A stretch of 64,000 nucleotides of DNA, from NCBI GenBank assembly GCA_958295675.1, contig OY282360.1, positions 125,810 through 189,809 of the forward strand. The letters are read 5' to 3'. Origin of the DNA: Minisyncoccota bacterium. Lineage in GTDB: Bacteria; Patescibacteriota; Minisyncoccia; Phycocordibacterales; JABAAK01. The notes beneath the pieces were generated by a model that was not told where the DNA came from, searched no databases, and saw nothing but the letters and a program-made list of their open reading frames with translations. This document shows positions 9,612-56,951 of this stretch, one piece after another (within the stretch, counting starts at the first letter, position 1; every line of letters starts with the position of its first letter). The position numbers and the translations under genes were made by a program.

Positions 9612-9639
9612 ATTATATTAAATAAAATTATTTTGTCAA
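9612..9639 (-). promoter_or_regulatory. consensus sigma70 promoter on the minus strand (TTGACA-16-TATAAT)
   Basis: Perfect hexamers in the reverse complement. ~50 nt upstream of the 9561 start codon. Confidence 0.6.
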
Positions 9640-9675
9640 ATATAGTATGGTGGAGGTGGTATCCCACGAAAGGTA

Positions 9676-10093: not shown

Positions 10094-10122
10094 ATAGTAC
10101 AAAAATAACTTTATTTTGTCAA
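10094..10122 (-). promoter_or_regulatory. sigma70 promoter on the minus strand (TTGACA-17-TACTAT)
   Basis: Shares the 25-nt block ttattttgtcaaatatagtatggtgg with the 9612-9639 copy. Confidence 0.55.
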
Positions 10123-10293
10123 ATATAGTATGGTGGGGTGAAACATCTCTCACACAGTTTTTTAAAATATGTTGCGTATTGCCAACTATGTGCTACCATA
10201 CGGATAACAGAGTAAATCCATAGAGTTTTCTTTGTGCGCGGTAAACACTGCGAGTAAAGACAATTGTATGCGGATATTGCCCTGTGTGAGTAT

Positions 10294-30096: not shown

Positions 30097-30738
30097 CTAC
30101 GCGCCGACAACGACTTTCAAGTCGTTGTCGCGAGCAACCCGCAGCAGTTGACCGATGCCATTGACATCGACCAAACCGGCGGATCCAAGAACGGTCACCT
30201 CAGGATGATCTCCGGCGGTCACGAGCACCTGCAACGCATGCCGATCAGCAATGTTGCGTATGGCGGCATAGTCATGCTCGTTGAGAGGCGCCGCGATGAT
30301 GTTCCTGGCCATGAGCATAGGGACATCAAGTTCGGCTGCCAGATCGAGCAATTCGCTAAGGTCGCCGTTGGTCTGCGCTTCGGTATTGTCATGCGCCACC
30401 ACAACGACTTTCAAGTCGTTGTCGCGAGCAACCCGCAGCAGTTGACCGATGCCATTGACATCGACCAAACCGGCGGATCCAAGAACGGTCACCTCAGGAT
30501 GATCTCCGGCGGTCACGAGCACCTGCAACGCATGCCGATCAGCAATGTTGCGTATGGCGGCATAGTCATGCTCGTTGAGAGGCGCCGCGATGATGTTCCT
30601 GGCCATGAGCATAGGGACATCAAGTTCGGCTGCCAGATCGAGCAATTCGCTAAGGTCGCCGTTGGTCTGCGATTCTTCGGCCGCAAAAGCGACGGAACCG
30701 GCGAATGCCAGCGTGAAAATGGCAAGCAATTTGCCCAT
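30097..30738 (-). CDS. secreted protein made of two identical ~98-aa tandem repeats (signal peptide + 2 x repeat), GC-rich
   Basis: N-terminal signal peptide, AAGGAG RBS and a downstream terminator all sit on the minus strand. The plus-strand ORF 30061..30876 is its antisense shadow. Confidence 0.6.
   Translation of the reverse strand: MGKLLAIFTLAFAGSVAFAAEESQTNGDLSELLDLAAELDVPMLMARNIIAAPLNEHDYAAIRNIADRHALQVLVTAGDHPEVTVLGSAGLVDVNGIGQLLRVARDNDLKVVVVAHDNTEAQTNGDLSELLDLAAELDVPMLMARNIIAAPLNEHDYAAIRNIADRHALQVLVTAGDHPEVTVLGSAGLVDVNGIGQLLRVARDNDLKVVVGA
30107..30670. repeat. perfect tandem duplication, 294-bp period (30107-30376 equals 30401-30670)
   Basis: Identity over ~270 bp by direct reading; in-frame with the minus-strand CDS. 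Confidence 0.9.
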
Positions 30739-45597: not shown

Positions 45598-47655
45598 ATG
45601 TCAAAAGGCAGGACAGTAGATATTGCGGACCTGACCAGGTCCTCCGGGAAGTATGATTTAGTCATCTTTTCACGGGAAAGTATTGATAGAGTAGAAAAAA
45701 ATATCTCTGAAAAAGACAAAAAACATGTCATTACCTGTCTGAAACGGGAGAAAGACATACAAGCGAAACCGGAAGAGATAATCCGTCAGCTCATGCTTGA
45801 TAAACTGATATATGAGTATGAATATCCAAAAGATTTGTTGTCGGTGGAGTACGGCGTGAGTTTCGGGCGGGAGAAGAAATCAGCTGACATCGTCATCCTC
45901 AACAAGGCGGACAAGACGAGCGTGTATTGTGTGTTGGAGATTAAAAAACACAACGCAAAAGACGGAAAAGACCAATTGAAGAGTTACACGAACGCAACCG
46001 GCGCACCGCTCGCCGTCTGGACGAACGGAACGGAAATGACCTGTTACGAACGACTGGATCCAAACTACTTTGAGCCGCTGTCAGACCTGCCGAAAGCAGG
46101 AGAGAATATAGACGATGTGAAAAACGAACGGTTCACCTATCTTGACCTAATGCAGAAAGATAGGTTGCAGGAGGAGAGAAAGTCCCTCAAGCAACTCATT
46201 CAGGAAATGGAAGACGAGGTGTTGGCGAATGCGGGAGTGGATGTATTTGAAGAGGTATTCAAATTGATTTTCACAAAACTCTACGACGAGATGGAGAGTG
46301 CTGATGATCGAATACAAATTGAGCGGGAGATGAAGCGGATACACAAAAAAAGCGACAAAGAGTTTCTTGTGGAGGATGCGGTGACCGAAGTAAAGATGGA
46401 CACCTTCGACTTCAGGCAGCTTGAATTCCGAAGCCGTGGTGACGCGCACCACACGAAAGAAGTTATCAATACGCTCTTCAAGAAAGCAAAGAACAAGTGG
46501 CAAGATATATTTGACAAAGGCGAGCCGCTGAAAATAACGGACGAGAATCATCTCCAGATTTGTGTGGGTTTCCTACAGAATGTGAAACTGTTTAACTCCA
46601 ACCTGCAGATAATTGACGAGGCGTTTGAGTATCTGGTCAACAAATCCGCGAAAGGAGAGAAAGGACAATACTTCACCCCGAGAAATGTCATTGATATGGC
46701 GGTGTATATGATAAACCCGAAGGACACGGAGTACATGATTGATACCGCATGCGGTAGTTGCGGTTTCACTATCCACACTCTGTTCAATGTGTGGGAAAAG
46801 ATACGAAGTTCTGGCAAATCACAATTTGCAAACTTCTCCAATCAGCGATTAACACAGGAACAGAAGGACTACATAGATAAAGTGTTCGGTATTGATTTTG
46901 ACGAAAAAACTGTGCGGGTGGCACGGACGCTGAACATGATTGCTGGAGACGGCAGGACGAATGTGCTGTACCTCAACTCCCTTGATTATACACGTTGGGA
47001 GGAGCGGTTGCGGGATGCCGAATGGAGCAGAACCTATTTGCAAGGATACTATCGCCTGCTTGATCTGGCGAAAGACAGAAAAGTGCCGAAAGAGTTCAAC
47101 TTTGACATCGTGATGGCGAATCCTCCATTTGCGGGAGACATTAAAGATGGGCGGATTATATCCAATTACGATATGGCGTTCAATGAGAAAGGTAAAAGAG
47201 TGAACAAAATATCACGGGACATTCTGTTCATAGAGAGAAACCTGGATTTCCTAAAACCGGGCGGACGGATGGCAATCGTTCTCCCTCAAGGTAGGTTCAA
47301 CAACACATCCGACCAGCGAATCAGGGAGTGCATCATGGACAGAGCACGATTGGTAGCCGTTGTCGGACTTGATGTAAACACTTTCAAACCGCACACCGGT
47401 ACCAAGACATCCGTTCTCTTCATTCAGAAGTGGGATGAAAAAATAAACCCAAAGACAGATGACTACCCGATTTTCATGGCGGTCTCCGAAAACTCCGGTA
47501 AAGACAATTCAGGAGACGAGATATACGAGACGGACAGCAAGGGAAACAGAAAACTGGACGAACACAGCCACCTCATCCAAAAGCACGACCTCAGAGATAT
47601 TGCCTTCGCATTTGAGAAGTGGGCGAAGAAGAACAAATTAAGTTTTTGGAAATAG
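45598..47655 (+). CDS. N6-adenine DNA methyltransferase, HsdM-like, fused to an N-terminal HsdR_N-type (PD-(D/E)xK-like) domain
   Basis: N-terminal ADIVILNK...VLEIKKHN...AVWTNG (HsdR_N pattern). MTase motif I region GQYFTPR...DTACGSCGF and motif IV NPPF. Confidence 0.8.
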   Translation: MSKGRTVDIADLTRSSGKYDLVIFSRESIDRVEKNISEKDKKHVITCLKREKDIQAKPEEIIRQLMLDKLIYEYEYPKDLLSVEYGVSFGREKKSADIVILNKADKTSVYCVLEIKKHNAKDGKDQLKSYTNATGAPLAVWTNGTEMTCYERLDPNYFEPLSDLPKAGENIDDVKNERFTYLDLMQKDRLQEERKSLKQLIQEMEDEVLANAGVDVFEEVFKLIFTKLYDEMESADDRIQIEREMKRIHKKSDKEFLVEDAVTEVKMDTFDFRQLEFRSRGDAHHTKEVINTLFKKAKNKWQDIFDKGEPLKITDENHLQICVGFLQNVKLFNSNLQIIDEAFEYLVNKSAKGEKGQYFTPRNVIDMAVYMINPKDTEYMIDTACGSCGFTIHTLFNVWEKIRSSGKSQFANFSNQRLTQEQKDYIDKVFGIDFDEKTVRVARTLNMIAGDGRTNVLYLNSLDYTRWEERLRDAEWSRTYLQGYYRLLDLAKDRKVPKEFNFDIVMANPPFAGDIKDGRIISNYDMAFNEKGKRVNKISRDILFIERNLDFLKPGGRMAIVLPQGRFNNTSDQRIRECIMDRARLVAVVGLDVNTFKPHTGTKTSVLFIQKWDEKINPKTDDYPIFMAVSENSGKDNSGDEIYETDSKGNRKLDEHSHLIQKHDLRDIAFAFEKWAKKNKLSFWK

Positions 47656-47658
47656 CGT

Positions 47659-49485
47659 ATGAAATTTACAAAATTTACAATTAAAAACTTTAAAGGTATT
47701 GAAAACCTTACATTAGATTTCACTAAACATCCTCAAGGTAAGATATTTCCATTAGTGGGATTAAATGAAAGTGGAAAAACAACGATTTTAGAGGCGATTG
47801 ATTTATTTCAGAATGAGATAGAAAATGGACGAGAGCATGAAATGATTCATAAGAGAAAGAAGGGGAAGTTTAATGGTTCTATTGAGATTGCTGCAACCTT
47901 ACAACTGGAAGATCAGGATAAAACTTTTATTAGGAACTTTTTAAGAAGAAAGAGATTGGAAATGCAAGATGATATTGAAGAAATTACAATAACAAAAATA
48001 TATTTTTTTTTAGACTCGGATTATAAAGAATTTCTTTCGGAATGGCATATTCCGCTAATGGTGAAAACAAGCCAGAGGAAAGATTTTATAAATCTGCATA
48101 AGGGGTATAAAGATCATTGGAGTAAATTGGTTAAAGAGATGGAAGATAAATATATTCCTCATATTCTATACTTTGAAAATTTTTTATTTGATTTTCCTGA
48201 GAAAATTTACCTTACCACTCCAGATAATGCAGTAACAGAAACAGATAATCAAACACAAAAAGAATATAGAGAAGTTTTAGATGATATATTAAGCAGTGTA
48301 GATCCTGATTATAATTTCAGAAAACATATTTTACAGAGATTAGAAAGTTCTAGTACTAGTGATAGAGAAGCAGTTACACAAGTATTAAACGAAATGAGTC
48401 AAAAACTTAATGATGTAATTGTTACTCCGTGGAAAAATATTCTAAAAGATTCTGCTGAGATAACTATTGAAGTCAAAAACAGTCAAGATTCAAACGGTCA
48501 TTTTCTTGAATTTAAAATAAAACAAGGTGCAGAAAGTTTTAATATAGGAGAGAGGAGTTTGGGGTTTAAATGGTTTTTTGGTTTTTTGCTTTTCACTGAA
48601 TTTAGAACCCAAAGAAAAGTTGAAAAAGGGGAGTATATATTTTTATTTGATGAACCGGCAAGTAATTTGCATCCTGCTGCTCAGCAGGCGTTATTAAATT
48701 GTTTTACAAACCTTGCTGAAAAATCAAAAATTATTTACTCAACTCACAGTCACTACCTCTTGATACCAAAACTTTTACTCACAGCGTTTGTAGTTATAGA
48801 CAGCGGAAAAAAACAGAATGAGAATGGGGAGATGATTTGGAAAGATTATAGTCAAAATATAACAGCCCAACCATATAGGTATTTTGTTTCCATAACAAGT
48901 GATAGTGATGATATGCATTATCAGCCACTTTTAGACTGCTTGGAATATGTAGAAAACCCTTTTGCAAATAATGATAATATAGTTTTTCTTGAGGGTAAAT
49001 ACGATTATTATATGTTTCAATGGATTAGAGAAAAATTTTTTCTAGGTGAGGATTATAATTTTAATTTTCGTCCAGGTGGGGGTGCCGGAAAATTTGAAAA
49101 TATTTTTTGTGAATATTTAGCGACCAACAAAAAATTTGTTGCAATTTTTGACGCAGATAGCGCAGGGAAAAGAGAAAAAGATCGTTATTTAGATAGTGTA
49201 AGTGTAGAATTGGAAAAAAATATTTTTACACTTGAGGATGTAAAATCATCCTTTAAGGGCTTTCAGATAGAAAAATTATTTTTTGTTAGTAATAAGACGG
49301 ATGATAGGTTGATCATTCAAAAAAAGGTATTTTCAAATGATAAAAGGTACAATAAAGGACGTTTTAACAAGGCAGTTCAAGAAATTTTTATAAACAAGGC
49401 TGAAATCATCCTAACAAGAACAACACAAAAAAACTTCAAAGCAGTTTTTGATTTTATACAACAAAAATTTAATGATCTAAGTTAA
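47659..49485 (+). CDS. OLD-family ATPase-nuclease (ABC-type ATPase + C-terminal TOPRIM-like domain; GajA-like)
   Basis: FTIKNFKGIENLTLDF...GLNESGKTTILEAI Walker A, then LFDEPASNLHP Walker B / D-loop. The C-terminus has VFLEGKYD and AIFDADSAGK (TOPRIM-like E and DxD). Confidence 0.7.
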   Translation: MKFTKFTIKNFKGIENLTLDFTKHPQGKIFPLVGLNESGKTTILEAIDLFQNEIENGREHEMIHKRKKGKFNGSIEIAATLQLEDQDKTFIRNFLRRKRLEMQDDIEEITITKIYFFLDSDYKEFLSEWHIPLMVKTSQRKDFINLHKGYKDHWSKLVKEMEDKYIPHILYFENFLFDFPEKIYLTTPDNAVTETDNQTQKEYREVLDDILSSVDPDYNFRKHILQRLESSSTSDREAVTQVLNEMSQKLNDVIVTPWKNILKDSAEITIEVKNSQDSNGHFLEFKIKQGAESFNIGERSLGFKWFFGFLLFTEFRTQRKVEKGEYIFLFDEPASNLHPAAQQALLNCFTNLAEKSKIIYSTHSHYLLIPKLLLTAFVVIDSGKKQNENGEMIWKDYSQNITAQPYRYFVSITSDSDDMHYQPLLDCLEYVENPFANNDNIVFLEGKYDYYMFQWIREKFFLGEDYNFNFRPGGGAGKFENIFCEYLATNKKFVAIFDADSAGKREKDRYLDSVSVELEKNIFTLEDVKSSFKGFQIEKLFFVSNKTDDRLIIQKKVFSNDKRYNKGRFNKAVQEIFINKAEIILTRTTQKNFKAVFDFIQQKFNDLS

Positions 49486-49490
49486 AATAT

Positions 49491-50837
49491 ATGGCACAGA
49501 TTAGCATAATTAAAAAGAAAGATGTTTTGAAAGGTGGACGGTTAGATGCCGAGTATTTTAAATCGGAGTATTTGGAAGTCGAGAATAAAATAAAAAGTTG
49601 GGGATATAAAACCATATCGGATTTGGCAGGAGGGTGTGTCAATTATGGACTGAATGTTGACCCTTTTTATACAGATGTAGGTATAAAGTTCATAAGAGCG
49701 CAGAATTTGAAGGAATTTGGTTTTGAGGGAGAGATTTTAAACATTCCATATTCAAAAGAGGATCTGTCCGAAAGAGAATTATTACAAACAGGAGATCTGA
49801 TGATAGTTAGAAGCGGTGCTAATGTCGGAGACATAGGAATAATAACCGACGAGTTCAAAGAGTCATCCTTTGGTTCCTATATTATTAAGTTTGATGTAAA
49901 AGATCATATTAATCCCTACTTTGTCTATATCTTTCTAAAAACGAAATATGGAAGATTGCAGACAGTAAGGTTCAGAAGCGGTGCTGCCCAGCCAAACATA
50001 AGTATTCCAAACTTAAATAAAATTTTGGTACCAATCTTAAATTCAAAATTCCAGAAAGATATAGAAAATGATTTCTTCAAGGCAAAAGAAAAACAAGAGA
50101 AAGCAAAAACTTTATATAAAAAAGCAGAAAAAATTCTTTTAGAAGAGTTTGGGTTGATAGGATATAAAACAGAACACGCTCTTACTTTTGAAGTGAAAAG
50201 AAAAGATATTGAAAGTGTAAAGAGATTTGATGCCGAATACTTCCAACCAAAGTATGAGGATATAATTAAAAAGATTCATGGATATAAAATGGGTTTTGCT
50301 AATGCAGAGGATATATTAATTTTCAACAAAAAGAATTTTTTTCCGAAGGAGGATGTGCTCTATAATTATCTTCCGCTGTCAAAGGTGTCAGGTGTGGGTG
50401 ATATAGATGTTTCTGAAAGAGAGTTAGGGAGAAATCTACCAACACGAGCAAGAAGAAGAGTACAGGCAGGTGAGGTGATATTATCTTCTATTAAGGGTAG
50501 CTTGGAATCTTCGGCACTGATACAGCAGGAGCATAATAACATGATTGTTTCTACAGGATTTTATGTTTTTCATTCAAACAAGATAAACTCGGAAACACTT
50601 TTGATTTTGTTTAAATCAAGATTCATGCTTGAATTATTGGAAAGAATATCAAAAGGTGCAATTCTCGGTGGGTATGATTTAGAGAGTTTTGAAAAAATAA
50701 AAATTCCACTCGTTAGGCAAAAGATCCAAAAACAAATCGCCGAAAAAATACAAGAGAGTCATAAATTGCGCAAAGAAAGCAAGAAGATGCTTGAATCAGC
50801 AAAAAAGAAAGTTGAAGAAGAGATAGAGAAAGCATAG
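49491..50837 (+). CDS. hsdS: Type I restriction-modification specificity subunit HsdS (two target-recognition domains)
   Basis: RLDAEYF at the start of TRD1 and FDAEYFQPKY at TRD2, with conserved coiled-coil spacers. 6 nt downstream of the OLD-like gene. Confidence 0.85.
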   Translation: MAQISIIKKKDVLKGGRLDAEYFKSEYLEVENKIKSWGYKTISDLAGGCVNYGLNVDPFYTDVGIKFIRAQNLKEFGFEGEILNIPYSKEDLSERELLQTGDLMIVRSGANVGDIGIITDEFKESSFGSYIIKFDVKDHINPYFVYIFLKTKYGRLQTVRFRSGAAQPNISIPNLNKILVPILNSKFQKDIENDFFKAKEKQEKAKTLYKKAEKILLEEFGLIGYKTEHALTFEVKRKDIESVKRFDAEYFQPKYEDIIKKIHGYKMGFANAEDILIFNKKNFFPKEDVLYNYLPLSKVSGVGDIDVSERELGRNLPTRARRRVQAGEVILSSIKGSLESSALIQQEHNNMIVSTGFYVFHSNKINSETLLILFKSRFMLELLERISKGAILGGYDLESFEKIKIPLVRQKIQKQIAEKIQESHKLRKESKKMLESAKKKVEEEIEKA

Positions 50838-50854
50838 AGACAACCCAAATCCTG

Positions 50855-51010
50855 TTCAGCGAGGTGAATTAAGCGAAAATTCAACAGTCAAGAATTTCTT
50901 GACAGTTCAAAAAGGATGCGGTGCGTAGGATTCGTTTGCACTTAAAATAAGAGCCAACTTGTGCAAAATTTACACAAGTTCAAAAAGAAAGAGCAAATGA
51001 GTTGGAATCC
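50855..51010 (+). repeat. P-repeat copy 1 (~150 bp; two hairpins + RBS + ATGAGTTGGAATCC start module)
   Basis: Homologous to 54745-54895. Contains the near-palindrome AACTTGTGCAAAATTTACACAAGTT. Confidence 0.8.
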
Positions 51011-51578
51011 GGTGAGGATAGAAGTAATCTATGAGTATAAACAATGTCTTAATCCTTCTTATCGTACCTTTAAACGGTATAGTGTAAATATGAGACATTC
51101 ATACACCACAGCAGATTTTATTCCTCTGATAGCGGTGGTTTTGTGTGTTACTGCCGCAACACTGCTCACCGGTGCATATACAGGTGCCGAGGGAATTAGG
51201 TGGATAGCATTGTTCATGGGATTTTTCTTCCTGGTGTTCGGTCTGTTCAAGGCATGGAACTTGCGGGGATTTGCGGAAGCATACCGCATGTACGACCTCA
51301 TTGCAATGCGCAGTCGGTTCTATGCACACCTATATCCGTTCATTGAACTGATGCTCGGAATACTGTATATCGGCGGCTGGTACCTGTTTGCCACCAACAT
51401 CACCACGCTCATTGTTATGACAGTATCAGCGGCAGGTGTGTTCATACAGCTGCGTAAGAGGGAAGAGATACCGTGTGCATGTCTCGGCACGGTATTCGTC
51501 ATCCCGATGACCTGGATCACGCTCGGGGAAGATCTCCTGATGGCAGGCATGGCGGCGGTGATGTTGGTTTTGTTATGA
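50997..51578 (+). CDS. MauE/DoxX-family membrane protein (start uncertain; the ATG lies within the P-repeat start module)
   Basis: 4 TM helices and a CACLG motif typical of the MauE/DoxX family. The ORF-track start at 50961 translates the palindrome. Confidence 0.5.
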   Translation: MSWNPVRIEVIYEYKQCLNPSYRTFKRYSVNMRHSYTTADFIPLIAVVLCVTAATLLTGAYTGAEGIRWIALFMGFFFLVFGLFKAWNLRGFAEAYRMYDLIAMRSRFYAHLYPFIELMLGILYIGGWYLFATNITTLIVMTVSAAGVFIQLRKREEIPCACLGTVFVIPMTWITLGEDLLMAGMAAVMLVLL

Positions 51579-51610
51579 GCGATTTAGGTAAGCAATTCTT
51601 TGATTTTAGA

Positions 51611-51650
51611 AGAGTCAACTTGTGCAAAATTTGCACAAGTTCAAAAAGAA
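51611..51650 (+). repeat. P-repeat copy 2 (palindrome core only: AACTTGTGCAAAATTTGCACAAGTT)
   Basis: Perfect 12-bp-arm palindrome. Followed by an RBS-like sequence and a 6-codon ORF. Confidence 0.8.
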
Positions 51651-51722
51651 GGAAATAGAGATGTTAGTAGTGTCGGTATAACGCTTGCGGTATTAGTACT
51701 CAGAAATCATTTTTTCTTTGTG

Positions 51723-52949
51723 CTATTTTCTGTAGGTAAATTTGTGCAATGATTTAATAATAAAGTACCAGCAGAGTACCAAGAGTATATAGTACGCAGT
51801 AAAAAGCAATTGTTTTAGCCAATTTGGAGAATTAACAAGCTTTTCAAGATTTTCTATGTTTTCAAACATGAAATGAGGAAGTGTAGGAAATAGGAGCGAA
51901 AGATTAAAAGAACAAGTCATGAATGATACTATAGAAAATAAAACAAGGAGTATCACTAATGGTTTTGTATAATTCAATCCTCCTCCGAAAAACTTGGAAA
52001 TATATATTATAAGTTTTTCCAAGAATGATAATCTTTTCATCTTTAACTCTTGCTGTAGATATTTCTGATGCGCGAATAATGCCTGTATCTGATCATCTCT
52101 TTCTTTTTGAAACATTTTTATTATTTTGAAGAAATATCGTTTTGATTCCGGCGTATGATTTTCATTATTTGGATCTATATCCATTTTTTCAGAAAAATAA
52201 ATATCATGTATACCATTCTTTTCTTGTCCAAGATAATTAGCAATTTGATAAATATCTGTTATTTTATTGATGACGCTTTCTCCTAAAAATTCCACAAGTG
52301 GACATTGTCCAAACCTAAAATCAGTTTCTGAAATTGTACAATTTTCAAACGCCAATCTTACCGTTGCTGTTGTATTTTTCAACTTAGCAATATTCTTATT
52401 CTTTATAACTTCATTACGAAAAGTACAGTTTAAGAAACTAATATCTCTTCCATTATTACCTTCTTTATTAATTTCTTTGAAAAACTTCTCATGTATTTCA
52501 TGAGAGACAGTATTTAAATGTGAAATTTCTCCAGTGATACAGTTGTCTTTAAATTCAATACAGCCATTATAATTTTCAATCCTTTCCGCATTAAAATTTT
52601 CAATATCATTGTTTTTGATACGAAACTTGACTACTTGATAACGCCCGTTTCTTTTTTTATAAAGAAATCTACAGTATGTATTTTGTTTTTTAAAATGATC
52701 ATCAAAATAGACATTGGAAATTTTCTTTTTTTCTATTGTCAAATAACCGGTTCGTGTATCAAATTTGCCTCTCTCTCTTAGAATAAAAAAGGGCTCGCTA
52801 GGCATGCCACCCAAAAGACTTTTGTGTATCTCTTTACCATTTGTATCTTGAATACGAAGGTGAGGGCTAGAAATTAAAAAGAAACCGTGATTTTTCTCAT
52901 CAAAAAGAGATCTAATATGTTCAATAATATTTATACGATTATCTGTCAT
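51723..52949 (-). CDS. hypothetical protein with an internal N-C-T/I repeat-like region and 2 C-terminal TM helices
   Basis: Repeated F-x-N-C-[TI] segments reminiscent of pentapeptide-like repeats. No firm family assignment. Confidence 0.4.
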   Translation of the reverse strand: MTDNRINIIEHIRSLFDEKNHGFFLISSPHLRIQDTNGKEIHKSLLGGMPSEPFFILRERGKFDTRTGYLTIEKKKISNVYFDDHFKKQNTYCRFLYKKRNGRYQVVKFRIKNNDIENFNAERIENYNGCIEFKDNCITGEISHLNTVSHEIHEKFFKEINKEGNNGRDISFLNCTFRNEVIKNKNIAKLKNTTATVRLAFENCTISETDFRFGQCPLVEFLGESVINKITDIYQIANYLGQEKNGIHDIYFSEKMDIDPNNENHTPESKRYFFKIIKMFQKERDDQIQALFAHQKYLQQELKMKRLSFLEKLIIYISKFFGGGLNYTKPLVILLVLFSIVSFMTCSFNLSLLFPTLPHFMFENIENLEKLVNSPNWLKQLLFTAYYILLVLCWYFIIKSLHKFTYRK

Positions 52950-53022
52950 GTTTTATATTTTTCCTGTTCCTATTCATAGGATTATTTAGTATACAGCCTT
53001 TCTTTACGACAGCAAATCTATC

Positions 53023-53122
53023 AAAAATAATACGCCCTGATTGCATCCACGCATGTGTTCCATCTCTCCTCGCCTAATTTTTTCGTTGTTTTTCCGTATT
53101 TCAGATTTTCTCTCGGGAACAG
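53023..53122 (+). repeat. Q-repeat copy 1 (100 bp, 99% identical to 55923-56022)
   Basis: Direct reading shows one mismatch. It corresponds to the 3' end (last ~33 codons) of the minus-strand gene 55921..56304. Confidence 0.85.
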
Positions 53123-53201
53123 AGAGTATTATTTGATGCTAGAATTTATTTTTTGTAGATTTGGCACTGTGCATTTCTAATTAAGGTGTATACTGAAATA
53201 T

Positions 53202-54038
53202 ATGGCCACCAAGACCCGATACAAAGGTCCGCGCATCAAGATGAAAGAGAAAGAGGTACCTCATTACTTTAATTATGAGGATATTTATATTTATCAGGGT
53301 AATATTTTAGATGTGCCACATATTAAAAAATCATCTGTTGATTTGATCATAACCTCACCACCATACAATGTGGATATCAGTTATAATTCACATAAGGATG
53401 ATTCAACGTATGAGGATTATTTGAAGTTTACAGAAAAATGGTTGGAAAAATGTTACGACTTAGCAAACGATGCCGGACGATTTTGTCTCAATATCCCATT
53501 AGATAAAAATAAAGGCGGGCAACAGTCAGTGTGTGCTGATATCACCAGTATTGCTAAACAAATTGGTTGGAAATATCATTCAACAATTATTTGGAATGAA
53601 GGAAATATATCGCGTCGGACAGCATGGGGTTCTTGGTTGTCTGCGTCTGCTCCCTATGTTATCGCTCCGGTAGAAGTCATCGTTATTTTGTATAAAAATG
53701 AATGGAAGAAGGAAAAAAATGAAAAAGAGAATGACATTACCAAACAAGAATTTATGGATTGGACTAATGGAGTGTGGACATTCTCTGGTCAAAGTAAAAA
53801 AGGAGCCGGCGGGCATCCAGCTGCCTTTCCGCTTGAATTACCTCGCCGATGTGTTAAATTATTCAGTTTTGTTGGTGACACTGTTTTTGATCCGTTTTTG
53901 GGAAGTGGTTCAACCCTTATAGCAGCGCGCTTACATAATAGAAAGAGTATTGGGGTTGATATTGATAAAGAGTACTGTGATATAGCCATTGAAAGATTGC
54001 GCAAAGAGGCAAATATTGATCAAGGTAATTTATTTTAA
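53202..54038 (+). CDS. Type II DNA methyltransferase, beta-class N6_N4_Mtase (motif IV SPPY, motif I DPFLGSGST)
   Basis: DLIITSPPY comes before the C-terminal FDPFLGSGST, the circular permutation typical of N4C/N6A beta MTases. Confidence 0.8.
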   Translation: MATKTRYKGPRIKMKEKEVPHYFNYEDIYIYQGNILDVPHIKKSSVDLIITSPPYNVDISYNSHKDDSTYEDYLKFTEKWLEKCYDLANDAGRFCLNIPLDKNKGGQQSVCADITSIAKQIGWKYHSTIIWNEGNISRRTAWGSWLSASAPYVIAPVEVIVILYKNEWKKEKNEKENDITKQEFMDWTNGVWTFSGQSKKGAGGHPAAFPLELPRRCVKLFSFVGDTVFDPFLGSGSTLIAARLHNRKSIGVDIDKEYCDIAIERLRKEANIDQGNLF

Positions 54039-54052
54039 TCTCTTTACAATGT

Positions 54053-54655
54053 ATGAAAAAGCACATATCAGAGAAAAGGCAAAAATCACAAAAAGATTTG
54101 ATATTGGAGTTTTTCAAAAAACACCCTAACAAGGATATATCACACCCAGAAGTTGTGGATTGGGCAACGAAGACATGGAAAAGGCAAACTGGCAGAGTTC
54201 TGCGAGATCCGGATAGAGCAGTTCGGATTTTACATGAAGAGGGGTATTTAATCAAAGTTGAAAAAGGTGTGTATCGCTACAATCCAAAGTCTGCCACTAA
54301 AAAGAAACAGCAGAATTTTACCGAAGTTCAAAAAAAGAAAATCTTAAAAAGAGATGGAAACAAATGCGTAATTTGCGGAAAAGGTAAGAAGGAAGGGATG
54401 GAGTTACATGTTGATCATATAAAACCAAAAGATCGTGGCGGTGAAGCAACTATAAGTAATGGACAAACTCTTTGTTCACAGCATAACTTTATGAAGAAAA
54501 ATGTAGATCAGACAGAAACAGGAAAGAAAATGTTCATTAGATTATACACACTTGCGAAAAAGGAGAAAAATAAAGGTTTACAAAAGTTTTGTGCTGATAT
54601 CCTAAAGACATACAAAAAACACAATGTAAATGGACATATTGAATGGGAAAAATAA
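54053..54655 (+). CDS. HNH endonuclease (putative cognate Type II restriction enzyme)
   Basis: CVICG...HVDHIKP...NGQTLCSQHN HNH motif. 15 nt downstream of the MTase gene. Confidence 0.65.
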   Translation: MKKHISEKRQKSQKDLILEFFKKHPNKDISHPEVVDWATKTWKRQTGRVLRDPDRAVRILHEEGYLIKVEKGVYRYNPKSATKKKQQNFTEVQKKKILKRDGNKCVICGKGKKEGMELHVDHIKPKDRGGEATISNGQTLCSQHNFMKKNVDQTETGKKMFIRLYTLAKKEKNKGLQKFCADILKTYKKHNVNGHIEWEK

Positions 54656-54744
54656 CAATTATTTCCGGCTTCGCACTATTGGTGAATAGGATTTTCAATG
54701 AAGGCAGATTGGATGAACATTCAGTATGTTCAAAAATGGAACAT

Positions 54745-54895
54745 ACTCCAAGGTGAATTGAGCGAAAATTCAACTATTAAGGATTTCTTAATAGTTCAAG
54801 AAATTTATTACAAAAACTGAAAAGAAGAGCCAACTTGTGCAAAATTTGCACAAGTTCAAAAAAAGAGAGCAGATGAGTTGGAATCCAGTGGATGG
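54745..54895 (+). repeat. P-repeat copy 3 (two hairpins + RBS + ATGAGTTGGAATCC start module leading into a 37-codon ORF)
   Basis: Aligned to copy 1. Hairpin A shows compensatory substitutions (CAGTCAAG/CTTGACAG versus CTATTAAG/CTTAATAG). Confidence 0.8.
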
Positions 54896-54992
54896 CGTTT
54901 GTTCATGGAGGTTTTCTTGCTCATTTGAATTGTTGCGGTCTATGCGGTACTATGTGAGGATATGCCCGAAGAGGAGAACTTAATAAATAAAC

Positions 54993-55700
54993 ATGGAAGA
55001 TACAGAGAAACATAAGGAATGGATTAAAGTGAATAAACAAAAGGTAATTGATCATTTTTGTTCCGGCATTGAACAGAGTGAATCCCCACTTGCCATTTTC
55101 ATGTGTGGATCTTCAGGTGCTGGTAAGACCGAAGAGGCGCGGAGATTAAAAGAGCATTTTGAAAAAAAGGGCACCAATCCGCATTTCGTGCATATTGACC
55201 AGGACATAGTAAAGGGGATGATTCCTGGATATAGTGGAGAGAATGCGGATATGTTTCAAGGTGCGGCATCAATCGGTGTTGATAAGATTCTCGATTACTG
55301 TTATAAGAAAAAATTACATTTTATTTTGGATTCCACCTTTTCTAGATACCCAAAAGCACAAAAAAATATAGCACGGGCTATCAAACAAAAAAGGCGTATA
55401 TTTATCATATATATTTACCAAGATCCTGAAGTGACCTGGAATTTTGTAGAAAATAGGAGAAAGGTTGAAAAGCGAAAAGTACCAATCGATGCTTTTGCAA
55501 ATTCTTACTTTGGCGCGTTTAAAACCATCAAGAAAATAAAGGAAGAGTATAAAACAAAGGTGTTATTGACTGTGGTAAACAAAGATACCGGCAAACAATA
55601 TATGAATGTGACAGGGGTTGACTCATATGTAAAAATGAAATACTCTAATAGTAAGAATCTAATAAAAAAACTTACAGAAGGAAACAATAAAATCACCTAA
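54993..55700 (+). CDS. P-loop kinase, zeta-toxin / AAA_33-like (putative toxin)
   Basis: Walker A GSSGAGKT near the N-terminus of a ~235-aa protein, in a defense context. Confidence 0.4.
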   Translation: MEDTEKHKEWIKVNKQKVIDHFCSGIEQSESPLAIFMCGSSGAGKTEEARRLKEHFEKKGTNPHFVHIDQDIVKGMIPGYSGENADMFQGAASIGVDKILDYCYKKKLHFILDSTFSRYPKAQKNIARAIKQKRRIFIIYIYQDPEVTWNFVENRRKVEKRKVPIDAFANSYFGAFKTIKKIKEEYKTKVLLTVVNKDTGKQYMNVTGVDSYVKMKYSNSKNLIKKLTEGNNKIT

Positions 55701-55920
55701 AATAGTATGAATTTTATCAAAATCATTTTCACATTTGGGAAAAGCAGGCAGGATGATGTAGCACATCCGAGTTCATTATTTGGTGTTTCCGCTCGGGAAG
55801 AAAAGAAAATTTGGAAAGAGATAACAAGGAAAGCAACTGAAGATCAGGAAAAGGTTACCAGAAAGGCAAACGCAATGAAGACAAGGAGCTTATAAACAGG
55901 TATCTGTTTATCCCGCACCG

Positions 55921-56304
55921 TTAAAAATAATACGCCCTGATTGCATCCACGCATGTGTTCCATCTCTCCTCACCTAATTTTTTCGTTGTTTTTCCGTATT
56001 TCAGATTTTCTCTCGGGAACAGGTAGCAGAGTGTGATTTTCTTGTGCAGGGTATCTATGACACACAGCATTCTGAAAGCATTTTTTCCTTTGATGCCCGG
56101 ATTCGGCAGATGTATATCCCATATCCCGACATTGCTATTCTTATAATATATCCTTTTAGATCTGCTCGTTACGACACATTCAAATGTCTCCAGTACCTGT
56201 GTTAAATTTTCTTTAAATTTTGAAGATAGTTTCTTACTGTCCGTGAATCTGTAGAAATCTTTTTCTGAGGTATGATATGCAATGCTGTTTTTTAGCGTGG
56301 GCAT
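55921..56304 (-). CDS. putative RelE/ParE-superfamily (HigB/Gp49-like) toxin
   Basis: ~127 aa with a GIWDIHLPNPG...FRMLCVID...LCYLFPR pattern resembling RelE/ParE-fold toxins. Lies downstream of the Panacea-domain gene on the same strand. Confidence 0.35.
   Translation of the reverse strand: MPTLKNSIAYHTSEKDFYRFTDSKKLSSKFKENLTQVLETFECVVTSRSKRIYYKNSNVGIWDIHLPNPGIKGKNAFRMLCVIDTLHKKITLCYLFPRENLKYGKTTKKLGEERWNTCVDAIRAYYF
55923..56022 (+). repeat. Q-repeat copy 2
   Basis: See copy 1. Overlaps the 3' end of the 55921..56304 (-) gene. Confidence 0.85.
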
Positions 56305-56320
56305 GAGATTCCTTCATAGA

Positions 56321-56800
56321 TCAAATAATATCTATATCAGTCGCATATTTGTACCGTATATTCTCACCGGGTGATGAGTAAAACCACGGTGCTTCAAGGT
56401 GTGTCTGCGCTATGATTTTTTTGGTGTTCCATGTTTTAAATTTCCTGCATATTTTCTCAAGCAATTCTTTTTCTGTTTTGGTGAAAACGCTCATGGACGG
56501 TTCAGATTTCGCCCGATAGCGCACCTTGTGTCCTCCTTCGTCAAGGAGCACCTCCTCCCGTTCTATGACATTGTCTCCGACAAGCGATGAGATAATTTCC
56601 CGCGCTTTTTTGGGGACCGGACCGAAGTCCAGATGGCAGTAGACATCTCCCGTGACACTTTTGCCCCGTTCCCGGTGATTGACGAAGTCAAAGTAGTAGA
56701 GCAGCTTGTTCAGCTTTGTTTCCCCAAGATACTGGTTATTGCAGTGCTTGATGAAATAGAGCACTGTATGTTTATATTTTTTTTCCTGCTGTTTGTCCAT
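56321..56800 (-). CDS. Panacea (DUF4065) domain antitoxin-like protein (SocA/PanA-like)
   Basis: TKLNKLLYYFDF...GKSVTGDVYCHLDFGPVP matches the Panacea core. Start trimmed to MDKQQ. Confidence 0.55.
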   Translation of the reverse strand: MDKQQEKKYKHTVLYFIKHCNNQYLGETKLNKLLYYFDFVNHRERGKSVTGDVYCHLDFGPVPKKAREIISSLVGDNVIEREEVLLDEGGHKVRYRAKSEPSMSVFTKTEKELLEKICRKFKTWNTKKIIAQTHLEAPWFYSSPGENIRYKYATDIDII

Positions 56801-56951
56801 GGTGTGACTGCACAGTAGTAGTATACAACCTTTCTTTTGCACGCACAAATGTTTGGCGCACGGTGTGCATTATTGTCAAAAATGAGTATACTATGACACA
56901 TGCCATTGCAGAATGAGCATGTTCTTTTAACTCACACCGAAAGGAGGAACC

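Follow-up and report, generated by a model that had tools for sequence, protein, structure and literature searches.

Hairpin-bearing P repeats in a Minisyncoccota defence island are probably relics of RhuM-type toxin genes, a family whose internal palindrome appears to be held at the DNA level

A 64,000-nt stretch of DNA from a Minisyncoccota bacterium (assembly GCA_958295675.1, contig OY282360.1, positions 125,810 to 189,809 of the forward strand; this whole stretch is the window) carries two families of direct repeats, P and Q, inside a low-GC island at ~43.8-56.9 kb that starts right after a tRNA-Met. The best overall explanation, in which we have good confidence, is that the three P copies are relics of one or more RhuM-family toxin genes and not genes themselves, that one Q copy (Q1) is a partial duplicate of a different toxin gene, and that the palindrome shared by the P copies is one which the RhuM family keeps at the DNA level. 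RhuM is a proposed toxin in restriction-modification (R-M) operons that is often fused to DOC (PMC3710099), and it is enriched next to Type I R-M genes (PMC9881135). The first-pass annotation had described P as a module of hairpin, palindrome and ribosome-binding site (RBS)/ATG in three copies and Q as a repeated gene end, the two together dividing the island into cassettes. Both families were recovered as described by repeat searching and MAFFT alignment with a shuffled-window control, and they do lie at junctions between unrelated modules of an island that is mosaic in composition when GC is compared gene by gene.

Three P copies were recovered, P1 (50855-51014), P2 (~51600-51675) and P3 (54745-54890, with homology that reaches further, over 54698-54950). 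The 25-nt palindrome AACTTGTGCAAAATTTGCACAAGTT was present in all three (50956-50980 with one mismatch, 51617-51641 and 54832-54856) with 0 matches in shuffled windows, and a further hairpin, A, precedes it in P1 and P3 (AACAGTCAAGAATTTCTTGACAGTT and AACTATTAAGGATTTCTTAATAGTT, respectively). The description of P as one three-copy module held for the palindrome but not for the remainder, as P2 has only ~44-55 nt around the palindrome in common with the other copies, and the ATGAGTTGGAATCC module is confined to P1 and P3. The copies and their hairpins are as follows.

50855-51014, + strand: P1, putative truncated RhuM pseudogene fragment directly 3' of hsdS, in which partial linker units A and B stand in tandem, with ~30 nt more
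50883-50907, + strand: hairpin A of P1, AACAGTCAAGAATTTCTTGACAGTT, codons T-V-K-N-F-L-T-V, -8.5 kcal/mol on the + strand and -10.8 on the - strand, in the register of palindrome B
50956-50980, + strand: palindrome B of P1, AACTTGTGCAAAATTTACACAAGTT, codons T-C-A-K-F-T-Q-V, one arm mutation (C·A)
51600-51675, + strand: P2, putative isolated RhuM fragment lying where the MauE and 408-aa genes converge; its 25-nt palindrome (51617-51641) is perfect and folds at -13.1 kcal/mol on the + strand and -13.9 on the - strand
54698-54950, + strand: P3, putatively the most complete RhuM pseudogene remnant, in which a tandem pair of partial linker units is flanked by weak homology on either side, that on the 3' side being to the RhuM C-side
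54772-54796, + strand: hairpin A of P3, AACTATTAAGGATTTCTTAATAGTT, codons T-I-K-D-F-L-I-V
54832-54856, + strand: palindrome B of P3, codons T-C-A-K-F-A-Q-V

Translated on the + strand, P1 reads ...QRGELSENS-TVKNFLTV-QKG... and, in another frame, EP-TCAKFTQV-QKE..., P2 reads ...LILEES-TCAKFAQV-QKEGNRDVSS..., and P3 reads NILQGELSENS-TIKDFLIV-QE through hairpin A and EEP-TCAKFAQV-QKK through palindrome B. Because these translations match the RhuM linker, hairpin A and palindrome B are the same eight linker codons (T-x-x-x-F-x-x-V) of the same kind of gene, namely RhuM-family (PF13310) and RhuM-N/Fic-DOC genes. Searches by tblastn with RhuM N-domain and RhuM-N-Fic queries matched P2 (E=4e-5), P3 (E=0.003) and also P1, and hhalign matched P3 to a RhuM N-region profile (A3; E=5.3e-6). 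In blastn comparisons of the window fragments with RhuM genes from other genomes, identity was 92-97% over 37-56 nt, with 85-97% over 34-53 nt for P1 and 92-97% over 43-56 nt for P2. No intact RhuM gene was found in the window by tblastn, and the translated fragments contain stops and frameshifts with no intact ORF. An hmmscan of the translated fragments against Pfam gave no match at E<=10 because they are too short. P1 stands directly after hsdS, which is the position of rhuM in hsdS-rhuM-hsdR and hsdM-rhuM-hsdS loci (an Aeromonas plasmid carries hsdS-rhuM-hsdR). The P copies thus appear to be remnants that include coding sequence, which the first-pass annotation had itself named as the finding that would tell against its view of P as regulatory units.

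All five hairpins of the window (A and B in P1 and P3, and the palindrome of P2) lie in a T-x6-V codon register with complementary arms forming a 10-bp stem and a ~5-nt loop. Folded as RNA they gave -7.3 to -13.9 kcal/mol (z = -2 to -6). The palindromes of P2 and P3-B are perfect, while P1-B, P1-A and P3-A have one mismatch or wobble each, and in P3 hairpins A and B are exactly 60 nt (20 codons) apart. Hairpin A differs between P1 and P3 at 6 of 23 central positions, four of which make up two compensatory pairs (G-C to A-T and C-G to T-A), compared to 23/24 identical positions in the 24 nt 5' of it. The claim that the copies of hairpin A keep their pairing through compensatory changes was therefore borne out for these two base pairs, and the same behaviour is seen across the whole gene family.

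The palindrome itself is widespread. The pattern ACTTGTGNAAANTTTNCACAAGT, scanned in genome_contigs and metagenome_contigs, gave more than 120 loci in each, from many phyla, and 240 exact-palindrome matches listed were analysed for flanking RhuM homology. Among the matches listed, 205 of 240 have the palindrome inside an ORF with RhuM homology on both the N and C sides, read as ...HLKNIFxxGELxExx-TCA(K/N)FAQV-(ADNGKTY... or QKEGxRxVxRxxxxYNLD...). The carrier ORF is PF13310 (E=1e-104), and in intact genes the palindrome lies at model position 1, i.e., at the start of the Pfam RhuM model; the N-terminal region fused to Fic/DOC also carries it. The search for further P copies that had been proposed thus found the palindrome in RhuM genes, with no composite P copy elsewhere in the window or in ~360 fetched loci. 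RhuM paralogues at the fetched loci that do not have the exact pattern keep a differing palindrome in the same register, for example:

ACTTGTAAGGATTTCTTACAAGT: codons TCKDFLQV
ACTGTCAAGGATTCCTTGACAGT: codons TVKDSLTV
ACTGTTTCCAAAATGGAAACAGT: codons TVSKMETV

A profile search yielded 7984 relatives. In the best 120 of these 7984, residues 2 and 7 of the motif pair as C-Q, V-T or T-V and residues 3 and 6 as A-A, K-L, S-E, R-R or E-S, which is the exact reverse-complement codon rule. Taken over 27 motif types, an average of 10.04 of 11 pairs were achievable, compared to 8.18±0.22 when shuffled, and the stem dictates the amino-acid pairs C–Q, V–T, K–L, S–E, R–R and G–P. Sixteen plasmid genes found by tblastn in Alpha-, Gamma- and Epsilonproteobacteria, Actinomycetota, Bacillota and Bacteroidota (GC 0.29-0.66) retain the stem with widely differing sequences, three of which are:

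Neotabrizicola plasmid: AACTATCCGGAAATTCCGGATAGTT
Pseudonocardia plasmid: AACTATTGACTCGCAGTCAATAGTT
Salmonella plasmid: AACCTGTAAGTCTTACTTACAAGTT

Covariation, which the first-pass annotation had proposed to check on the P copies, was seen in two alignments of the gene family. The first (A4, n=26) consisted of 15 of the 16 plasmid genes (one duplicate dropped), four genes from protein look-ups and seven from DNA-pattern loci, and its pairing was 90.6% compared to 63.8% in shuffles (0/500), with double changes at 12/12 pairs and 25-41% in slid controls. The second and independent test (A5) took 80 viral-contig relatives through the motif YNLDAIISVGY 20 codons downstream, which gave 42 distinct in-register hairpins with 95.0% pairing compared to 60.5% in shuffles (0/500), double changes at 10/10 pairs and a covariation score of 0.95 versus 0.30. 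Over 63 distinct RhuM-type sequences sampled by protein similarity, stem positions 3-12 from the centre were 93.7% Watson-Crick paired; the two innermost positions were mostly unpaired, giving a 10-bp stem with a ~5-nt loop in a palindrome of 23-29 nt. At the RhuM loci examined, stems of at least 8 bp occur almost only at the linker position. The sole RhuM gene encountered without an internal palindrome (motif TSRSISGH; an Akkermansia metagenome-assembled genome (MAG), L018 921-2013) has a canonical 25-nt palindrome 6 nt past its stop codon. In the window Rfam gave only two tRNAs at gathering threshold and no match at E<=1 in 50800-55000, and the literature searched, by topic or by literal sequence, held nothing on a RhuM palindrome or hairpin, which makes this conserved intragenic palindrome apparently undescribed.

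Among 630 stem cells across the family, the mismatches comprised 17 A·C, 9 G·T and 14 of other kinds. Were an RNA helix conserved, on whichever strand, G·U would be expected to be favoured on that strand. The lack of a G·U bias points to a constraint at the DNA level, and a sense-strand RNA hairpin was set aside, as G·U was not above A·C (9 versus 17) and an RNA-only explanation is not favoured on either strand. A -1 frameshift site (A_AAU_UUU in the N variant) was also rejected, being missing from the K variant and located in the loop. The pattern points to a palindrome held at the DNA level, with compensatory changes that would override amino-acid identity. Its maintenance may come either from selection for a cis function or from quasipalindrome template-switch correction, and a cruciform or hairpin, a symmetric binding site and quasipalindrome template switching are candidate mechanisms. 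In quasipalindrome template-switch mutagenesis, known from mutational hot spots in laboratory genes, imperfect inverted repeats are corrected to perfect ones during replication. Such a mechanism would need no function and would explain persistence and compensation in pseudogene copies. The RhuM palindrome matches its predictions in complementarity irrespective of sequence, in arms that change together, in the lack of G·U bias, in an unconstrained loop, in persistence in pseudogene fragments and as a rearrangement hot spot; to our knowledge, template switching is not known to maintain one palindrome across a gene family in many phyla. A bolder reading, which we put forward only tentatively, takes the RhuM-linker palindrome as a distinct functional DNA element kept across phyla in a toxin gene at the protein's expense, with the P copies as (recently) working joints, or else as the product of a template-switch "molecular drive". 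The function of such an element could lie in toxin control or the sensing of infection, with a cruciform or hairpin as the signal, or in serving as a recombination joint for the exchange of defence-island modules.

The view of P as a promoter/operator/start unit did not survive these results. Both hairpins are RhuM coding sequence and the A-rich "RBS" tract corresponds to the codons V-Q-K-E, while the ATGAGTTGGAATCC tract of P1 and P3 falls within an 8-codon insertion relative to RhuM genes. Promoter-like matches at P were not more frequent than in shuffles. The module ATGAGTTGG had been taken as a conserved start that feeds into a MauE-like gene, a 6-codon ORF and a 37-codon ORF. From the proposed ATG, 149 of 150 listed MauE homologues align from query residue 18 or later, most from ~29-41, and these 149 do not share the MSWNPV... 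start. An internal Met at 51090 is residue 32 of the ORF and the likely true start; the 31 preceding residues lie outside the family because homologue alignments begin near this Met. The 6- and 37-codon ORFs downstream of P are read as incidental read-outs of pseudogene sequence. A C-protein that might bind the palindrome was looked for by Pfam in the ORFs scanned and none was found. The promoter/operator/RBS reading was rejected on the RhuM codons, the promoter-like counts at shuffle level and the non-conserved start.

The Q copies are 99/100 identical and 2900 nt apart.

53023-53122, - strand: Q1, orphan copy of the last 33 codons of a 127-aa toxin-like gene; its stop, TGA, is at 53021-53023, the first base inside Q1
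55923-56022, - strand: Q2, 3' end of the intact 127-aa gene

Read on the minus strand, Q1 encodes LFPRENLKYGKTTKKLGEERWNTCVDAIRAYYF plus stop, identical to the final 33 codons of the 127-aa gene (55921-56304). The copies differ at one position, a synonymous change, and the stop after Q1 is TGA compared to TAA after Q2. Q had been described as a copy of the last ~33 codons of a minus-strand toxin-like gene that brackets a Type II R-M and zeta-kinase segment, and this was confirmed, the bracketed segment consisting of the methyltransferase (MTase), HNH, P3, zeta-kinase and orf62. The 127-aa toxin family is rare, with three clusters found. The toxin/orf62/zeta junction on the Q2 side shows 99% identity in two contigs (L001 and L002), and a distant relative (L262; 50-68% amino-acid identity) has a SocA-toxin pair convergent with a zeta gene that has an orf62-like end, with a GH3 gene between toxin and zeta. 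The SocA and toxin gene pair is also present in L261 and L262. As the Q2-side neighbourhood recurs in other contigs, it would be older than the duplication, Q1 would be the derived copy, and the Q2-side junction is not a fresh insertion boundary. The reading of Q as an att-site duplication is unsupported, since no integrase was found by Pfam in the ORFs scanned over 42.4-62.1 kb and the repeat is 100 nt of coding sequence up to the stop; the Q2 junction is also conserved elsewhere. Q1 is an ordinary partial duplicate, 100 nt long, of a SocA-linked toxin gene at its 3' end. Recombination is its probable origin, whether through one crossover with DNA that bore the end of the toxin gene or through partial tandem duplication and subsequent replacement, and the Q direct repeats could delete the 2.9-kb R-M and zeta segment by homologous recombination. 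The order P1...Q1...P3...Q2 is as from tandem duplication of a [P...Q] unit, but the spacings differ (3889 versus 2900 nt). Exact-protein look-ups for the zeta kinase, the 408-aa protein and the MTase had no alternative arrangement or empty site on record, and L261 (SocA-toxin-418aa) was rejected as an empty site, its 418-aa protein being unrelated to the 408-aa protein of the window.

The island begins with a GajB/UvrD-like helicase, followed by an HSDR_N-methylase fusion, an AAA_15 ATPase and HsdS, then P1, the MauE-like gene and P2, the 408-aa gene (-), Q1, the Type II methylase and HNH, P3, the zeta kinase and orf62, and finally Q2 in the toxin gene and SocA. Its main features besides the repeats are listed below.

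45598-50837, + strand: Type I-like R-M/MADS-like module, HSDR_N-N6_Mtase fusion, AAA_15 ATPase and HsdS (Pfam; PADLOC MTase_I, mad2, mad3, mad5)
51090-51578, + strand: MauE/DoxX-like membrane protein (Pfam MauE, E=5.6e-15), likely true start ATG 51090, GC 0.50 compared to ~0.30 in its neighbours
51723-52949, - strand: protein of 408 aa, hydrophobic at its C-terminus and without a match in Pfam, NCBIfam or PADLOC, standing as unrelated cargo after P2 and before Q1
53202-54038, + strand: N4/N6 methyltransferase of a Type II R-M system (Pfam N6_N4_Mtase, E=9e-49; PADLOC MTase_II)
54053-54655, + strand: HNH endonuclease of a Type II R-M system (Pfam HNH, E=7e-11)
54993-55700, + strand: zeta-toxin-family kinase (Pfam Zeta_toxin, E=5e-33)
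55707-55895, + strand: 62-aa ORF (orf62), whose convergent neighbourhood with the toxin gene is also present in L001, L002 and L262
55921-56304, - strand: presumed toxin, 127 aa, following the SocA/Panacea gene
56321-56848, - strand: SocA/Panacea-domain antitoxin (Pfam SocA_Panacea, E=7e-20)

The "HsdM" is an HSDR_N_2 and N6_Mtase fusion and no HsdR is present in the island. GC differs gene by gene (hsdM 0.45, AAA_15 0.30, MauE 0.50, 408-aa gene 0.29), indicating a mosaic, and the island is most likely a mosaic, decaying defence island with no evidence of an integron or miniature inverted-repeat transposable element (MITE). No integrase or recombinase domain was found by Pfam in the ORFs scanned over 42.4-62.1 kb, three of which are without any Pfam match. 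Many MauE homologues carry an unrelated N-terminal extension of ~80-90 aa. Elsewhere in the window there is a 282-nt tandem direct repeat (30100-30381 and 30394-30675; 99% identical, 294-nt spacing) and a 34-nt repeat of promoter/operator-like look, AAATAA..TTATTTTGTCAAATATAGTATGGTGG (9620-9653 and 10103-10136; 94% identical, 483 nt apart).

The P relics are most likely scars of recombination and decay in this mosaic island. P1 and P3 would come from one composite pseudogene with two tandem partial linker units, P1 being the shorter copy, and P2 would be a separate, independent B-type fragment. Each relic appears centred on the linker between an N-terminal DNA-binding-like domain and the RhuM domain, and the palindrome may have been a favoured break/join point or a segment that resists decay. 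The MauE gene is bracketed by direct 44-nt B fragments (P1-B and P2; 93% identical), an arrangement consistent with insertion of the gene through recombination at the palindrome or close to it. Several observations weigh against the relic reading. The short fragments obtain no score from Pfam, and their homology comes from tblastn, blastn and hhalign over short stretches. Hairpin A has diverged at 6/23 positions between P1 and P3, compared to 1/24 in the 5' flank, with pairing kept, which is odd for a neutrally decaying relic and could reflect ongoing local constraint or copies from different alleles. Three of the five hairpins are terminator-like on the minus strand and all five lie shortly past gene ends, so that they may have kept a cis role. 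No empty-site allele was found for P or Q, and the order of events given here is a reconstruction. Finally, broken copies of the palindrome at other loci are mostly on MAG or metagenome contigs (short-read), where the shared 25-29-nt palindrome could itself cause chimeric joins.

Such broken copies, with RhuM homology missing on one or both sides within 40 codons, made up 35 of the 240 matches listed (~15%); among the matches listed, 18 have homology on neither side, 11 on the N side only and 4 on the C side only, and 2 are head-to-head. In the cases inspected the break falls 0-5 codons from the palindrome, which fits a preferred break/join point. The swap between RhuM and Fic C-termini takes place ~30 codons downstream of the hairpin, not at it. 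Of the palindrome-carrying loci, 11/252 gave tblastn matches to the Type I subunits of this window in what was a crude test, and many carriers, especially in gut Firmicutes, are outside recognisable Type I loci.

Individual loci add to this picture of rhuM breakage. An intergenic region in a Rickettsiaceae MAG (L006 726-912) has 2-3 RhuM-type palindromes of differing sequence and orientation with almost no flanking RhuM homology, in parallel with P1 and P3, and these palindromes are in a divergent promoter region. In three human gut metagenome contigs (L146, L173 and L190) one and the same RhuM 5' half continues, at the palindrome, into differing partners, namely its normal 3' half, unrelated DNA or another RhuM 5' half head-to-head (L146 and L190), and these joins are either inversion/recombination at the palindrome or low-coverage assembly chimeras. 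Even where the surrounding Type I R-M operon is otherwise intact, rhuM frequently occurs truncated or as two separate ORFs (L255 6001-6994, L258 6001-7032 and L256 5315-6585). A search for hairpin pairs elsewhere also turned up, at L165 3760-4100, seven or more related palindromes (AAGTTCCCAnnTTGGGAACTT and versions of it that carry compensating changes) arrayed between a ParM-like gene (from a reading of the sequence) and a large serine recombinase. This array was rejected as RhuM-type, as it resembles a parC centromere and has no relation to the RhuM hairpin.

The hairpins could also have been recruited from a dead RhuM gene and retained as working cis elements, i.e., terminators or insulators acting mainly on minus-strand transcripts, or mRNA-stabilizing 3' hairpins, which we consider unlikely. 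The intergenic position of all five hairpins shortly past gene ends, with P2 between convergent genes, is as this reading would have it, as are the match of P1-A, P1-B and P3-B to a loose terminator consensus on the minus strand, the folding energies down to -13.9 kcal/mol, the pairing of hairpin A preserved despite divergence, and the palindrome 6 nt past the stop of the L018 RhuM gene that has no internal one. The stems are, however, AT-rich, and on the + strand, where the upstream hsdS, MauE and HNH genes are encoded, U-tracts are weak or missing; the minus-strand orientation fits no nearby minus-strand gene at P1 or P3. High-GC RhuM genes have no U-tract, the relic palindromes of L006 are in a divergent promoter region, and the family's stem mismatches show no G·U bias. 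We regard it as possible, with weak support, that the P hairpins kept a function as terminator or insulator.

Less probable still, in our judgement, is that the RhuM-linker palindrome is a recombination site, used by a recombinase in trans or through cruciform or hairpin processing, with the P copies as active joints and MauE as a cassette between B sites in an integron-like arrangement. P elements do stand at three module junctions, the GC-rich MauE gene is flanked by the near-identical B fragments, the 35 broken copies among the 240 listed matches include the head-to-head L146 and L190, L006 has relic palindromes in tandem, and the outline of the palindrome, perfect but variable at its centre, is like that of a recombinase core site. 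The scanned ORFs at 42.4-62.1 kb held no recombinase, however, and the stem sequence varies almost freely between genes, which argues against sequence-specific recognition; the palindromes are perfect, without the extrahelical bases of attC, the broken copies are mostly in short-read MAGs where chimeras are possible, and the RhuM/Fic swap is displaced from the hairpin. We give very little credence to P as a MITE-like or other non-autonomous mobile element with Q as the att or target-site duplication (TSD) of a site-specific insertion. The presence of multiple copies within 4 kb, the ~150 nt that P1 and P3 share in non-coding positions and the exact flanking of a 2.9-kb segment by Q are as such an element would leave them, but inspection of the P1 and P3 boundaries found no terminal inverted repeat (TIR) or TSD, the content of P is RhuM coding sequence, the composite P was confined to this island among the loci fetched, a 100-nt coding-end "TSD" without an integrase is unlike known insertion, and the Q2 junction is conserved in a distant relative. 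The integron- or MITE-like cassette logic suggested by the first-pass annotation and the att-site reading lack their defining features, because no recombinase or C-protein was found by Pfam in the ORFs scanned and no TIR or TSD by inspection of the P boundaries, and the relic explanation is the one we retain.

For the window this removes a false lead, as neither a new cassette system of promoters and operators nor integron-like logic is present. R-M operons have RhuM-type toxins among their commonest passengers, and a fixed-position palindrome with a 10-bp stem, its pairing kept in more than 60 sequence versions, sets the amino acids of the protein there, an unusually clear case of nucleic-acid constraint overriding protein-coding constraint. 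It offers an experimental handle on the family, in which the stem is broken and then restored by paired mutations, and it may explain why rhuM is so often broken at that point in defence islands. A practical warning also follows, that short conserved intragenic palindromes can mimic operators or terminators and seed assembly chimeras.

Compared to known systems, the P repeats share with integron attC sites a variable sequence with conserved hairpin potential between unrelated cargo genes, and differ from them in having no IntI (Pfam), hairpins derived from coding sequence, perfect stems and two hairpins in tandem; orientation and spacing are not cassette-like, with one palindrome flanking a minus-strand gene. 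Rickettsia palindromic elements, REP and Correia elements are short stretches of palindromic DNA that are also intergenic and can lie in-frame inside genes. Unlike these, the RhuM palindrome is no insertion, occupying the same eight aligned codons family-wide without indels, and its sequence varies while its pairing is kept. In polymorphic toxin systems (Rhs/CdiA), orphan modules repeat short conserved coding stretches downstream, which mark the joints of recombination. Displacement by recombination can leave behind a duplicated gene end of the Q kind; no orphan toxin or immunity ORFs follow P or Q, and the fragments here are far shorter. RhuM and RhuM-N-Fic genes in R-M operons, of which the window would hold only pseudogene fragments of 55-250 nt, are the closest match, as the P fragments read as pieces of such genes and P1 follows hsdS.

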